Below, in pieces: positions 28,311-41,811 of a stretch of DNA of 41,811 nt. The stretch's first letter is position 1; each line of letters begins with the position of its first letter. Under the pieces are notes generated by a model. That model was not told where the DNA came from. It ran no database searches and saw only the letters and a list, made by a program, of their open reading frames with translations. Origin of the DNA: Bradymonadales bacterium (GTDB lineage: Bacteria; Bdellovibrionota; UBA2394); NCBI GenBank assembly GCA_007693605.1, contig REDG01000031.1, positions 1-41,811 of the forward strand. The letters run 5' to 3'. A program made the position numbers and the translations under genes.

Positions 28311-28336
28311 GCAGATGGGCCTTTAGCGACGCTCCC
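28311..28336 (+). repeat. Isolated MITE terminal repeat, copy D
   Basis: GCAGATGGGCCTTTAGCGACGCTCCC versus GCAGATGGGCCTTTAGCGGCAGTCCC at 32076-32101. Confidence 0.75.
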
Positions 28337-29657
28337 CCTGAAGGAGTTCTTCTCTCCGCTTCCTCAAACTAACCGGCAGCTGTAAGAGTGATTCCAAAAG
28401 GAGCTTTTGCCTTTCGGCTTGGGGTTTGTCTTCGATTTCTTGCATCAAGAGCAACAGATCCAAGCTTCTCATGAGACTCAGGTTGAGAGCCTGGGCGTGC
28501 TGTCGCTTGTCAGAATCGAACTCCAACCTTAGCTTCTCTTCAAATGAACTATCATCCATCGGATTCAATAAAAGCAGGCCGGGCAGGTTTGGAGACTCTC
28601 CAATTTCCTCTCGCTGAGAATCGAAGACATTCAAGTCGTTTCGCTTCAAATCTCGATCCATGGCCTCCACCCGAATCAAAAGAAGAGGCGGAGAGCTTTC
28701 CGACATCCGAAGAATCGAAAGCTCGGGCTGCGACTTGACCTGATCAACCCAGAATCCAAAGAAATCTTGAAAGAGATCTCGACAGACCTTAAAGAGAGGC
28801 TCTCCTGAAAAGGACACGATCCCCTTCCATGATTCCAGCTTATCAATGACGACCTCAAGCTCTTGCAAAGCCGCTTGCATTTCGTCTCTTTGCTTTTTGA
28901 GCTCCGTTTCTTTTCGAAATTGGAGCGCCTGAGCCCACTCCGGCAGACTGGCGCTCGACTCTGGGCCTTCCTTTTTGGCGCGAAGCTGCTCGTCTATCGC
29001 TTTTAAAAGCTCAAAACAAGGCTGTCCGAGACTCCGACCTTTCAGTCTTTTCCGGAAGCAAGGTAAAACAAAAACTTGGCTTTCGATGATCAGGCCATGA
29101 AGACCCTTACTCGAACTGACGCTCGGAATCATTTCGAAAGCATCGCTTGGCAGGAAACTCACTTTTGTAGAGGCCCAGTTTTTTACATAAGCCTCGAAAG
29201 CCTTAAGATGCGAGCTCAAACTCAGGCCCGACTTTTCTTGCTGGCGCTGAACTCGAAAGCGATTCAGAATTCTCTTCGCCAGATCAGTGGTGCTAATCAA
29301 ACTCGTTGGGTATCGGGTTCCCTCGTTGATTTTATCGACCATCTCATCCACGAGAAGGCAAACCCAGCTGCCCGCTTCCATCTGCTTGAGAACCTTTGCC
29401 TCCATACGACCCAAAGCCTCGAGGTCTGAATCACAAATACTTCGAGGCCCATCTCTGTCTGGGGTTTCTGTGATTCGCTCGTAGACCCCCGAGGGAATCA
29501 AATAACCATCGTAAGAGAGCTGACTCGACTCCGCTTCGATCTTGCTCAAAAAATCGATCCGACCCCAGTCGGTGTCCATAGACTTTGAATCCGGCTCAAA
29601 GCCCAAGCGATCAAATCCGATGGCGCAGACCTTCCAATCTCTTTTATTTTTTTGCAT
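28323..29657 (-). CDS. Hypothetical protein: alpha/beta domain, coiled coil, possible degenerate PD-(D/E)xK-like domain
   Basis: 444-aa ORF; LPEW followed by a coiled coil and a C-terminal pattern SGEPL..FFGF..GLLLLNP..RSLDL. Confidence 0.6.
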   Translation of the reverse strand: MQKNKRDWKVCAIGFDRLGFEPDSKSMDTDWGRIDFLSKIEAESSQLSYDGYLIPSGVYERITETPDRDGPRSICDSDLEALGRMEAKVLKQMEAGSWVCLLVDEMVDKINEGTRYPTSLISTTDLAKRILNRFRVQRQQEKSGLSLSSHLKAFEAYVKNWASTKVSFLPSDAFEMIPSVSSSKGLHGLIIESQVFVLPCFRKRLKGRSLGQPCFELLKAIDEQLRAKKEGPESSASLPEWAQALQFRKETELKKQRDEMQAALQELEVVIDKLESWKGIVSFSGEPLFKVCRDLFQDFFGFWVDQVKSQPELSILRMSESSPPLLLIRVEAMDRDLKRNDLNVFDSQREEIGESPNLPGLLLLNPMDDSSFEEKLRLEFDSDKRQHAQALNLSLMRSLDLLLLMQEIEDKPQAERQKLLLESLLQLPVSLRKRREELLQGERR

Positions 29658-31977: not shown

Positions 31978-32101
31978 GGGACTGTCGATAAAGGTCCAGA
32001 TGCGAGAAGACAAGGAGCGAGCATCGCAGTGTGGTTTAGATGCCACTCGAGAAGCGCAGCGACGCAGCCGACGAAGCAGATGGGCCTTTAGCGGCAGTCC
32101 C
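31978..32101 (+). mobile_element. Complete 124-bp MITE/REP-like element, copy C
   Basis: 26-bp imperfect terminal inverted repeats GGGACTGTCGATAAAGGTCCAGATGC / GCAGATGGGCCTTTAGCGGCAGTCCC (21/26 complementary); no transposase. Confidence 0.85.
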
Positions 32102-36435: not shown

Positions 36436-36765
36436 TCAAAAGGACCGAGCAAGTTTGGAGCTGATAAGTCGGTTGAGGCTCACCTTGGCTTCTTGGGCTT
36501 CAATTGCAAGTTGACGGTGAATCTCAGGAGGGATTCGCAGCATAAACTTTCCGCTGAACTCAGTGGTTGCCAAGGGCTCAGGGATAGGCTCCCTGCGTGA
36601 TTTCATGTCTTTGACCACTGTCTTTACGACTTTCCGAATGCCCTGAAGGGCCGCTTCTTGAGATTTAGCAAGCCAGCTAAGGCTTGGAAACTCAGCGCAA
36701 AGTCCGACAAACTCTTGGTCCTCTTCAGACCAGGTCACGCGATAGGTGTATTTCTCGATGTTCAT
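36436..36765 (-). CDS. hicB: HicB-family antitoxin
   Basis: YTYRVTWSEEDQEFVGLCAEFPSLSW; RHH region FSGKFMLRIPPEIHRQLAIEA..SLN. Confidence 0.92.
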   Translation of the reverse strand: MNIEKYTYRVTWSEEDQEFVGLCAEFPSLSWLAKSQEAALQGIRKVVKTVVKDMKSRREPIPEPLATTEFSGKFMLRIPPEIHRQLAIEAQEAKVSLNRLISSKLARSF

Positions 36766-37031
36766 TCCTCGGTCTCCTTCGCTTTCTTTTCCTTCAGCAT
36801 GTCTATAGCCTTCAAAACTTGTCTCACCTGGTAGGCCTTCGCCTTGCCTCGGTCACTTTGTAAATTCACCCGAGGGTTGCCGGGCCATGGAGTTCGATAA
36901 ACTCTGTGACTTGATCCCGCTTGGCGAGCCACGCCGAAGTAGTGGTCACAGAGCCTGCAGAGCTCTCGAAATCGAACGCCTTTGGGATTGTTCCGCATGG
37001 CTTGTTCAATTCGCTCTATATCCTGGCCCAC
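36762..37031 (-). CDS. hicA: HicA-family toxin
   Basis: NPKGVRF, GSSHRVY (catalytic His), GKAKAYQVRQV; ATGA overlap with hicB. Confidence 0.9.
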   Translation of the reverse strand: MGQDIERIEQAMRNNPKGVRFRELCRLCDHYFGVARQAGSSHRVYRTPWPGNPRVNLQSDRGKAKAYQVRQVLKAIDMLKEKKAKETEE

Positions 37032-37888: not shown

Positions 37889-38092
37889 CTCCCTGTTCTT
37901 TTGAGCGGTTAGGTCGAAAAGGCGCAGCAGGGGGCTTAGGCTAGAGGATTAGACGGAAGAATGAGGGAACGCCAAGGCGTCGGACACCGAACTACACCGC
38001 ACTCGGCCTTCTACCGAGAGTCAATGAGCTTCAAAACTCAACCGAAGCTCTACGAAATTGAACGAAATGAGCATAAGTGAGATTCGAACATG

Positions 38093-38119
38093 TGGGGACC
38101 GAGAATCCCTCGGCCCCAT
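38093..38119 (-). terminator. GC hairpin just downstream of the flagellin-like gene
   Basis: TGGGGACCGAG-AATCC-CTCGGCCCCA; no clear U-tract. Confidence 0.45.
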
Positions 38120-38127
38120 GCTCGTTC

Positions 38128-39285
38128 TTACTTGCACAACATCTCAGGCAAGCGCGCTTGGATCATCCTTTCTTGAATTTGCGTGATCGATTGATCGATG
38201 ACAGCGAGCGCGTTTTGCGCATTGCTTTGTGTGCTTATGTCGATCGCAGAAAGACCAGTGTGTGGATCAATCGACACCGACAATGAGTCCCTATCATCAA
38301 ACTCAGCAAGAATTGAAAAACCTTCCTTAAAAGTCACATCAAAATCTCTTCCTGATGTTAAAACGATCGAGCCGTTGTAAACTTGCTTGGAGTCTTCGAT
38401 GTTCAAAGCTTCTGCGACATCTCCCTGAGCCTCTAAAACAATGTTTCGGCCATCGGGTGCGTAAAGAACAATACCGTCCGCGCTTCCACTCATAAGTCGA
38501 GCGCGAGTGCCCGTCATAAAAGAAAAGTTATTAATGGTTGTAATGACTTCTGACACATTTTCAAAATAACCAAATATATGGACTCTGTTGATAAGAAGCT
38601 CGCCGGGTTGAACCTCTCGAATGTCCCGAAGTAAATCACGATTGACATCATTCAGCTCAACCACTGTTTGTTCGACATCAGCCATGACGCCAGTCATTGC
38701 AAAAACGGAATTTACTGCCTCCGCAAGACTAACGGAAGAAAATACATGGTAAGGAGGAAGAGAGACAGCATCATTGCTGGTTGAGCTCAGAACATCCTTT
38801 CCATTCACCGAAAGAATATAGGAGGTCTCGCTAGTTGAAATCTCTGGGCGGCGCAATGCAAATCGTTTTACAGCAAGGGCGCCGAACCCATCTCTCTTCA
38901 AAGCGTCGATTGAAAAATCCTGCAAGTAAGCGAAATTCCCGGCAGCTATCTTGATTGGAGTTTTAAATCTGAAACCATCCCTAAGGTAATAGTGTTGATC
39001 TTGGAAAATATCCACAAAATTCGACCCGTTGATGACTCTGAAAGTCTCTTCCAGCCAAGCTTCAAGCTCGTTGTTGAGGAATCCTCTATCTCTACTCGCG
39101 ATAGCGCCGTTGCTAGATTGAATGGCGAGCTCTCTCATTCGCACCAAATTACTGTTTAGTTGAGAGAGACTCCCCATTGCTGCTTGAGAGAACCGAACGG
39201 CCTCTTCGCAATCGAGTTGCTTGCAACCCCCATCAGCCTGAAATGTTAAGCCCACTATCGCAGCAAAGATTAAATTCGATATCAT
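38128..39285 (-). CDS. Flagellin homolog lacking D0 segments, with N-terminal signal peptide
   Basis: ND1 match SQAAMGSLSQLNSNLVRMRELAIQSSNG..DRGFLNNEL; hook-IN-like D2/D3 (AEAVN..TGV.A, DGRNI, GSIVLTS); CD1 match IDISTQSNAQNALAVIDQSITQI; RBS GAGGAGGAGG. Confidence 0.88.
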   Translation of the reverse strand: MISNLIFAAIVGLTFQADGGCKQLDCEEAVRFSQAAMGSLSQLNSNLVRMRELAIQSSNGAIASRDRGFLNNELEAWLEETFRVINGSNFVDIFQDQHYYLRDGFRFKTPIKIAAGNFAYLQDFSIDALKRDGFGALAVKRFALRRPEISTSETSYILSVNGKDVLSSTSNDAVSLPPYHVFSSVSLAEAVNSVFAMTGVMADVEQTVVELNDVNRDLLRDIREVQPGELLINRVHIFGYFENVSEVITTINNFSFMTGTRARLMSGSADGIVLYAPDGRNIVLEAQGDVAEALNIEDSKQVYNGSIVLTSGRDFDVTFKEGFSILAEFDDRDSLSVSIDPHTGLSAIDISTQSNAQNALAVIDQSITQIQERMIQARLPEMLCK

Positions 39286-39646
39286 AAACCCTCCTCCTCT
39301 ATGACAAATTCTGGCTAAGTTTTATGATTGGGTAAATCGTTAATGCTCAAGTCTTTATCCATCAAACGGACAAGATGTCACTTCCGACAGGGAGCGTTGG
39401 GAGTCCGATCATTGAAGCCATTCAAGATGGCGCTTCTTTGAATGAGGTGGCGGCGCTAATCTAGCGCTGAAAGCCAAGTTGTAATAACCTCATATTCGCA
39501 ACGCGGCGCGTTGTCTAGAACTGGTGACGCGTTGCAATGCCAGCTCCAGGCAAACGCCCGCAGACCAAGCTCTTCATCGGTGAATGTTGAACAACCTCTT
39601 CTGCACATAGCTCATCTTCATCAGATCTCAGCATCTCAGACGAAGA

Positions 39647-39943
39647 CTATGCAACCTCTTCAAGGATAACTTTAGTTTTTAGACCAAAAGGCGCTAGATA
39701 TTGATCAAGAGTTTCTCGCGTTGGGCTCACCCTTCCGTTGATCATGCGAGAGATGCTTTTCTCATGAATGCCGGAGACCTCAGAGAATTCCTTTACTCCC
39801 ATTCGTCGAATAGTATGAATGAGGGCATCTTCGATGTCGAGACCATCTTCGCCCTCAATGAGTCCAAGAAAATATTCGCGTGCAAAGCTTTTATCTTTAA
39901 GTTCATCTGCAAGCTGCTCATCGTATGACTTATGTCTTCGCAC
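39647..39943 (-). CDS. HTH antitoxin (HigA / addiction-module antidote type)
   Basis: GTG start after GGAGAG; HTH GVKEFSEVSGIHEKSISRMING..PTRETL; overlaps the toxin stop. Confidence 0.85.
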   Translation of the reverse strand: MRRHKSYDEQLADELKDKSFAREYFLGLIEGEDGLDIEDALIHTIRRMGVKEFSEVSGIHEKSISRMINGRVSPTRETLDQYLAPFGLKTKVILEEVA

Positions 39944-40253
39944 TATAAGCTCTCCAATATTCCTTCGCCAAATCGATGTCCTTTTGCTGACGCCGCTTTG
40001 TTCCGCCATAGAGAAGAATGATGATCTGATTTCTCTTTTCTCCAAAGTAAATCCGATAGCCCGGCCCATAATCCAGTTTGAGCTCGAAAACCCCATCGCC
40101 GAGAGGCTCCACATTCTTCTTTGAGCCGCCCAGCGCGACTCGATCGATGAACGCTCGAATCTTGGCACGCGCAGTGAGATCTTTGATGCTCACAAGCCAG
40201 TCCGTAAAGGGTTGGCCTCCATCCTTCCCTTGATAAACTTTGATTTCCTTCAC
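39930..40253 (-). CDS. RelE/HigB-superfamily toxin (addiction module killer type)
   Basis: PFTDWL, GDGVFELKLDYGPGYRIYF, LLYGGTKRRQQKDI..AKEYW. Confidence 0.92.
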   Translation of the reverse strand: MKEIKVYQGKDGGQPFTDWLVSIKDLTARAKIRAFIDRVALGGSKKNVEPLGDGVFELKLDYGPGYRIYFGEKRNQIIILLYGGTKRRQQKDIDLAKEYWRAYSAKT

Positions 40254-41585: not shown

Positions 41586-41811
41586 TAAAAGACACTAAAG
41601 AATATGCGTTGAAACTTCCAGCTCGACATACTGCTTAAACTAAACTAAGCGATACTTTTAGACCTTCCAACCAAAAGGGAGAAGGCTGAGCCGATGTGTT
41701 ATGGCCTCTCAGGCCAGTTTCTCCGGGCTCTTCAGTGATAGAGGTCGCTTATAATGTGAAGTGCGGGCGTTTGACTGGAGCGGGTAACACTTAGGGATTA
41801 GGGCCGGTTCA

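Follow-up and report, generated by a model that had tools for sequence, protein, structure and literature searches.

A flagellin family that lacks D0 and bears an N-terminal leader appears to have been put to a new use outside the cell

The DNA analysed here (the window, 41,811 nucleotides) carries at 38128..39285 (-) an intact open reading frame of 385 residues, which Pfam and a structural model identify as a D0-less, leader-bearing flagellin derivative, P0001. A ribosome-binding site, GAGGAGGAGG at 39290..39299 (-), lies 4 nt before the ATG, in agreement with the intact frame and strong ribosome-binding site reported in the initial annotation. Residues 1-17 (39235..39285 (-)) form a hydrophobic leader that replaces the N-terminal D0 and is probably a signal peptide, as judged from hydropathy and from low pLDDT at residues 11-18. 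Alignment and model place Cys26 (39208..39210 (-)) as the first residue of helix ND1a (26-57), which together with ND1b (64-87) spans 39025..39210 (-) and retains a face made up of R49, R51, E52, L53, R67 and E73. A family-specific insertion of six residues (94-99; 38989..39006 (-)), seen in the alignment, marks the start of the D1 hairpin region, and the outer domains D2/D3 (about residues 136-345; 38251..38880 (-)) belong, by comparison and in the model, to the same type as those of the flagellins native to the lineage. The CD1 helix (353-384; 38134..38229 (-)) ends at Cys384 (38134-38136), with no C-terminal D0 beyond it. Just 3' of the stop lies a stable hairpin (38089..38120 (-); -29.6 kcal/mol for a 65-nt piece) that has no U tract and is absent from the intrinsic terminator calls. 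No sigma70-like promoter was found on the coding strand of P0001; sigma28 and sigma54 consensus patterns matched upstream neither of this gene nor of the canonical flagellin genes, and are hence uninformative. On expression, no RNA run is listed among those that hold the sequence, and two RNA runs from the source study yielded 0 reads over the full 13.8 kb, which is likewise uninformative.

Homology of the D1 helical bundle to the flagellin superfamily is apparent from Pfam, from PDB sequences and from the model. Pfam Flagellin_N matches P0001 over profile positions 70-125 of 139 only (E 2.4e-5, under the cut-off), and the seven Flagellin_C (PF00700) matches in the genome do not include this locus. 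Nearly all of the 40 flagellin matches among PDB sequences run across residues 22-91, and the protein is 32% identical to the genome's own flagellin. An AlphaFold2 model built from 21 family sequences (pLDDT 90.8, pTM 0.82) contains the three long helices given above and is best matched by Helicobacter pylori FlaA (PDB 9ygu; Z 23.6, rmsd 3.7 A over 320 residues). Its residues 24-385 align to residues 65-433 of the 494 in Salmonella flagellin 1UCU, so that P0001 lacks equivalents of the first 64 and the last 61 residues. In this model P0001 has the D1-D3 flagellin fold, with D0 missing at both ends. The initial annotation had described flagellin D1 helices with D2/D3, a hydrophobic leader in place of about 60 N-terminal residues, the absence of a D0 tail and symmetric trimming, and on all four points the profile matches, hydropathy and model agree with it. 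Two of its details need amending. The outer part, called hook-IN-like, receives no Flagellin_IN score on P0001 itself, although 14 of 27 scanned relatives match at E<=0.05; and the protein does end early after QIQER, but 12 residues later, not about 11, and this stretch, though substituted, can still be aligned gap-free with the end of CD1. No D0 remnants were detected in the six coding-strand frames flanking the gene (three upstream, three downstream), where a frameshifted D0 would have pointed to decay.

P0001 belongs to a family of 28 proteins (29 units, one protein having two) with about 23-44% identity to it among the 21 members aligned. From 184 proteins, a pattern test left 50 without D0 start motifs, and 28 were kept after reading; fragments, divergent D0-bearing flagellins and unrelated matches were dropped, and one fragment was replaced by a full-length member of its cluster. 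P0125, an apparent chimera, was left out, as was P0153, a clostridial-type multi-repeat protein of 633 aa in which a pilin-like N-terminal segment precedes three flagellin D1-like repeats and which may represent a separate re-routing of flagellin. Strong profile matches at a further seventeen loci proved to be D0-bearing, contig-cut, frameshifted or giant flagellins, none of them a member of the D0-less family. The six-residue insertion is filled in 29/29 family units and in 0/53 canonical flagellins, and in a tree the 29 units make up one side of a branch with support of 100. A mixture-model tree of D1-D3 only, with D0 trimmed from the canonical rows and excluding 27 of these rows as well as seven units that were short or had long branches, groups 22 units at 100 and joins them to the lineage-type flagellins at 98; both trees are quick ones with long branches, those of the family being much longer than those of the lineage's own flagellins. 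Judged from these trees, the D0-less family is one clade, derived from the ordinary flagellins of one uncultured bacterial family. This bacterial family probably belongs to the Bdellovibrionota; the source labels of some members read 'Bacteriovoracaceae bacterium' and 'Deltaproteobacteria bacterium'. Homologs of like architecture, for which the initial annotation had asked, thus exist, and the same design in 28 proteins of one clade supports its view that the trimming was selected and not the product of decay.

Seven of the 14 genomes of the bacterial family carry nine D0-less flagellin genes between them, and the non-carriers are 85-98% complete. Among 387 other genomes of the phylum there was no family match at E<=1e-25, a threshold that would miss D1-only forms, and a scan of named genome contigs returned a single match, weak and unrelated. 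Three members consist of D1 only (182-192 aa), one is a tandem D1-D1 protein, and D2/D3 are shortened in one more; the D1-only and tandem forms suggest that D1 is the core of the family. Three members have an extra N-terminal domain, and pairs with equal-length source contigs suggest further tandem copies. The only close DNA pair compared is identical (0 differences in 1164 nt) and therefore yields no dN/dS estimate. Our literature searches, largely confined to papers available without subscription, found no description of a D0-less, leader-bearing flagellin family, and to that extent the family is previously undescribed.

The leader distinguishes these proteins from ordinary flagellins. Measured over eight residues, hydropathy peaks at 2.88 in that of P0001, whereas none of 53 canonical flagellins exceeds 1.64; values of at least 2.0 occur in 25/28 family members versus 0/53 canonical proteins; those below 2.0 are P0048 (1.84) and two proteins with doubtful starts. 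The hydrophobic core of P0001 is confined to its N-terminus, the best later 19-mer scoring 1.26, which leaves no later membrane segment. Atypically, no K or R precedes the core in P0001 and 11 other members, and at least one does in 16/28. No lipobox or membrane anchor was seen in the leader analysis of the family, and a lipoprotein formed through Cys21 was rejected, this residue having no lipobox and not being conserved. The leader is a probable signal peptide, with a putative cleavage site at FQA/DG. The genome of P0001 also encodes VKOR with a DsbA-like domain, no DsbB was found there, and GspD scores over its cut-off in a profile scan.

The initial annotation had missed a pair of cysteines, Cys26 and Cys384, which start and end the long N- and C-terminal D1 helices in the model. 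The first site is Ala in 44/53 canonical flagellins and the second is Leu in 49/53; canonical flagellins contain only four Cys among 24,018 residues. Both cysteines are present in 24/29 family units; of the other five, three lack both, one retains only the second, and in one the first is displaced by four residues. Cysteines at both cut ends of the D1 helices are a new feature of the family. They occupy the places of F41 residues 67 and 432 if the ends align without gaps. Covariation in 126 canonical flagellins (effective number 92, 61 bands, single pairs being noise) gives a weak register of 527-531, compared with 526 for the cysteine pair; in 25 shuffles, whose scores are on another scale, the best band never began at 522-538. 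The simplest reading of the pair is a disulfide that closes the D1 bundle, and alignment and model suggest that it probably replaces D0 at the point where this domain was cut. Disulfide bonds form outside the cytoplasm, and this reading therefore supports export.

Conservation within D1 is uneven. For sites invariant in canonical flagellins, the family's retention rate is 0.59 across the 17 that lie in distal D1, compared with 0.19 across the 12 in proximal D1 (p=4e-4, a value that overstates the difference since the sites are not independent). R67 is invariant in the family, and R49, R51, E52, L53 and E73 are kept in 20-25 of 29 units; the surface R/L/E triple is complete in only 15/29. By contrast with these kept residues, N133, Q148 and G150 of the hairpin persist in 0, 3 and 1 of 29 units, and the RNAND, TAEG, GAxQNR and hairpin motifs have been lost. 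The kept residues correspond by motif to the surface between protofilaments that binds TLR5, for which a hot spot of R89, L93 and E114 in Bacillus subtilis flagellin (PMC5247705) and a binding motif at 89-96 (PMC5869493) have been described. The hairpin and C-terminal helix meet the neighbour's N-terminal helices in the 5-start direction (PMC8306008), and this contact region is remodelled in the family. On alignment, then, one D1 face is kept while the D0-proximal end and the hairpin face are remodelled; taken with the D1-only forms, this leads us to infer a one-faced subunit. The kept residues may, however, serve the fold alone.

Comparison with known systems sets P0001 apart from each of them. 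It shares the D1 three-helix bundle and IN-type outer domains with canonical FliC/FlaA (PF00669 and PF00700), but has no D0 or spoke at either end, gains the leader, the terminal Cys pair and the six-residue insertion, and, unlike canonical flagellin, lies outside the flagellar clusters. It has neither the part of Flagellin_N (1-69) that covers D0/spoke and the export signal nor a C-terminal D0, and very probably could not form a normal filament. FlgL (TIGR02550) shares D1 homology, and some members carry the automatic label 'flagellin-like hook-associated protein FlgL', but this identity was rejected: the TIGR02550 score is 19.7 against a cut-off of 127.2, the genome's own flgL adjoins flgK, and the family nests among flagellins. 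To our knowledge, non-filament flagellins retain D0. This is the inner-tube domain of the flagellar filament (PMC8306008), and its loss makes it unlikely that P0001 polymerises into an 11-protofilament tube. Engineered D0-less fragments have nearly the same boundaries, residues 25-385 of the model aligning to 66-433 of Salmonella F41 (1io1), but F41 and flagellin-cent (3v47, 5gy2) are laboratory truncations, whereas P0001 is natural, conserved, leader-bearing and probably disulfide-bonded. Vibrio FlaE/FlaF are likewise flagellin paralogues with a non-filament extracellular role, but they exit by the flagellin transport channel (PMC6692518), a route for which the P0001 family has no N-terminus. 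The flagellin fold is also used off the filament by Sphingomonas A1 p5/p6 (PDB 2zbi, 3k8v), for which an alternative export route has been suggested as unpublished work; these proteins have retained D0 and take part in building flagella as well, and their alginate binding relies on the termini that P0001 has lost (PMC9751261).

The initial annotation called the gene an orphan, which is correct for the window, where a scan of the 43 other ORFs found no flagellar Pfam family, the genes being housekeeping, transport, toxin-antitoxin or unknown. It does not extend to the genome (2.19 Mb, 90% complete), which carries intact flagellins, fliD, flgK, flgL and rod genes on other contigs. Both flgK and fliD are present in all 14 genomes of the bacterial family, and a second FlgK-length copy was found in none of them; S41 proteases occur in 14/14 and are uninformative on a Bd0967-like role. 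Two toxin-antitoxin pairs, one HicA/HicB-like and one a Gp49-like toxin with an HTH antitoxin, flank P0001 at 36436-37031 and 39647-40253 (-), suggesting a variable region. Separately, a short repeat with very high contig depth lies near 32000-32100, with related copies near 28330 and 41760 (intervals of about 28320-28340, 31980-32100 and 41750-41811).

Relatives' loci place the family in a different setting. In 4/6 of them, a TIGR02147/DUF4423 regulator lies directly upstream of the D0-less flagellin gene or cassette, and no flagellar cluster was present in the six loci read. Two have the order regulator, then a leader with a GNGG-motif domain and trimmed FliD, then two D0-less flagellins; in two loci the GNGG-motif domain is fused to the flagellin part. 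The second fliD genes (L090:9693-11447 (-) in G004 and L094:10384-12135 (-) in G011) encode a leader, a GNGG-motif domain of about 150 aa and a FliD in which FliD_N is matched from 23 or 30 to 96/97 and FliD_C to 208/236. Across 375 alignment columns the derivative shows 41% identity to a normal FliD, and both genomes also keep a normal fliD. In Pseudomonas, most terminal truncations of FliD abolish filament formation (PMC8533109), which suggests that the derivative is not a normal cap. It occurs in only 2/14 genomes, a word-limited search adding no further leader-bearing FliD among its five matches. Since cap and filament subunit share the same change and lie together, their function is tied to filaments. 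The P0001 locus itself, standing between toxin-antitoxin pairs, has no regulator and no FliD partner.

Several features of these cassettes were recorded in passing. TIGR02147 has 97 matches in 13 genomes (1-15 per genome) and none in that of P0001. In about 12/20 of the TIGR02147 loci L113-L132, inspected by eye, the regulator is followed immediately by a gene in the same orientation that bears a leader and in many cases has a GN motif early on. At L093:6819-7674 (G010) the regulator gene upstream of the fusion is itself split in two frames. In the literature searched, DUF4423 turned up once, in a table of PMC12546842. Sequence comparison gave no clear relative of known structure for the extra N-terminal domain. 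The GNGG-motif domain (P0056, P0068 and P0194, about residues 20-150) has an HE but no second His, and its model resembles M48/SprT/YgjP zincin folds at TM 0.5-0.64, under the bar for naming; clusters of look-alikes are mostly from Bdellovibrionota.

The retention of one design in many related bacteria suggests that a motility protein has taken on a different role, one outside the cell. We propose that a copy of the lineage's own flagellin would have been rebuilt once, in the ancestor of the bacterial family, into a soluble exported protein. Very likely, the leader would direct P0001 through Sec to the periplasm, where VKOR-DsbA would join Cys26 to Cys384 and so seal the D1 bundle where it frays; onward transport through a type II secretion system is possible. 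What it does there can be stated only tentatively, and our preferred reading, to which we give somewhat less than even chances, is that of an exported one-faced subunit that would bind flagellin or filament ends and block or reverse growth, most likely on foreign flagella. Keeping the D1 inter-protofilament surface while losing D0, D0-proximal D1 and the hairpin motif would give a subunit that can bind but cannot be built upon, and such a subunit would poison filaments, cap them or loosen them, acting in some genomes alongside a trimmed FliD that would likewise be exported. The family's patchy distribution, its fast divergence with long branches, and its regulated, variable cassettes of secreted cargo point to the flagella of prey or competitors rather than to the cell's own assembly line. 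Of the uses suggested in the initial annotation, a capper or inhibitor is favoured by inference over an adhesin or phage decoy, in view of which residues are conserved and of the FliD derivative encoded alongside. Growing filament tips are shielded by FliD, which makes access for an outside capper doubtful. A broader and more speculative form of the proposal, possible but less probable, is that a probable predator lineage turned the proteins of its own filament and cap into an anti-flagellar kit, exported by Sec and under TIGR02147 control, in which stapled one-faced flagellins would end or unravel others' filaments and trimmed FliD with its zincin-fold domain would be aimed at filament ends.

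The strongest competitor, itself unlikely, would have P0001 act from the periplasm on the cell's own filament. On a flagellum that is sheathed or resorbed, it could serve as a terminator, as an accessory subunit or in disassembly, and the exported FliD would cap pieces of filament taken inside. The family's descent from the lineage's flagellin, whose D2/D3 it mostly keeps, fits this. Furthermore, the flagella of Bdellovibrio and of two Bacteriovorax species are sheathed (PMC7175336), and in B. bacteriovorus the flagellum is taken up into the periplasm, where its flagellin is broken down (10.64898/2026.06.08.730854). An own-filament role sits less easily with a gene found in only half of the genomes when flgK and fliD are in all of them, with the loci of relatives free of flagellar clusters, with the much longer branches, or with the lack of matches at E<=1e-25 in the rest of the phylum.

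Somewhat less likely again is a decoy or ligand for something that recognises D1, be it the receptor of a eukaryotic grazer or host, a flagellotropic phage or a protease. In its favour, the kept residues include counterparts of the TLR5 hot spot, mapped by motif and structure alignment (PMC5247705, PMC5869493), D0-less flagellin constructs signal 269-1355-fold less through TLR5 (PMC5247705), and an arms race would fit the fast divergence. Against it, no animal host is known, and the only sequencing run that holds the DNA, which may be its source, is labelled soda lake metagenome. Flagellotropic phages meet the outer surface of the polymer, yet D1-only forms exist, and a decoy leaves the co-exported FliD derivative unexplained.

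We give a similarly low probability to a surface or matrix adhesin, in which the stapled D1 would be a stalk presenting D2/D3 or a fused domain to polysaccharide or prey. Precedents are FlaE/FlaF, which bind exopolysaccharide (PMC6692518), and p5/p6, which bind alginate at the cell surface (PMC9751261), and the extra N-terminal domain of three members could be presented in this manner. The p5 alginate site, however, needs terminal residues 20-40 and 353-363 (PMC9751261), parts lost here; D2/D3 are absent in the three D1-only members and in both tandem units, besides being shortened in another; and the leader analysis gave no anchor.

A Sec-exported fibre, its D0-less units stacked by D1 contacts and its threads started or ended by exported FliD, is improbable: the run of one cap-like and two subunit-like genes in two genomes, the tandem D1-D1 protein and the suggested further tandem copies speak for it, but the lost D0-proximal end and hairpin are the makers of axial and 5-start contacts (PMC8306008), and 5/7 genomes have a single gene without a FliD partner. 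Hardly any weight falls on a truncated fliC pseudogene or assembly artefact, for although P0001 sits among toxin-antitoxin pairs at slightly lower GC (0.45 vs about 0.50), 28 intact proteins down to about 23% identity share the new features, the flanks hold no D0 remnants, and one contig from the source run spans the gene without differences.

Flagellins are generally held to need D0 and to have no way out of the cell other than the type III channel of the flagellum. The natural flagellin family described here shows a changed putative export route and a probable disulfide in place of D0, and has lasted across at least six genera, while the filament cap went through a parallel change; together they show a way in which an axial protein of the flagellum can become independent of the machine it belonged to. 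The proteins, predicted to be naturally non-polymerising, would be tools for work on filament capping and disassembly, a poorly understood process, and they offer a lead on what TIGR02147 cassettes regulate in Bdellovibrionota. If true, the anti-flagellar kit would be the first instance in which the parts that build flagella serve as weapons against them.

Beyond the D0-less family, the bacterial family has several divergent D0-bearing flagellin paralogues of 270-640 aa outside the flagellar clusters (L133-L145), among them a conserved group of about 500 aa with an altered N-terminus. Those in the genome of P0001 (G000) lie at C42:26697-30436, C62:8603-10537 and C50:9935-10747. One open frame of at least 4566 residues at L146 (G002:C37:1-13700) contains many flagellin outer-domain repeats and encodes a giant flagellin-like protein. 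Finally, at C38:2-481 and C38:19586-20065 of G000, nearly identical flagellin starts point off both ends of a 20-kb contig, as expected for repeated or invertible flagellin genes.
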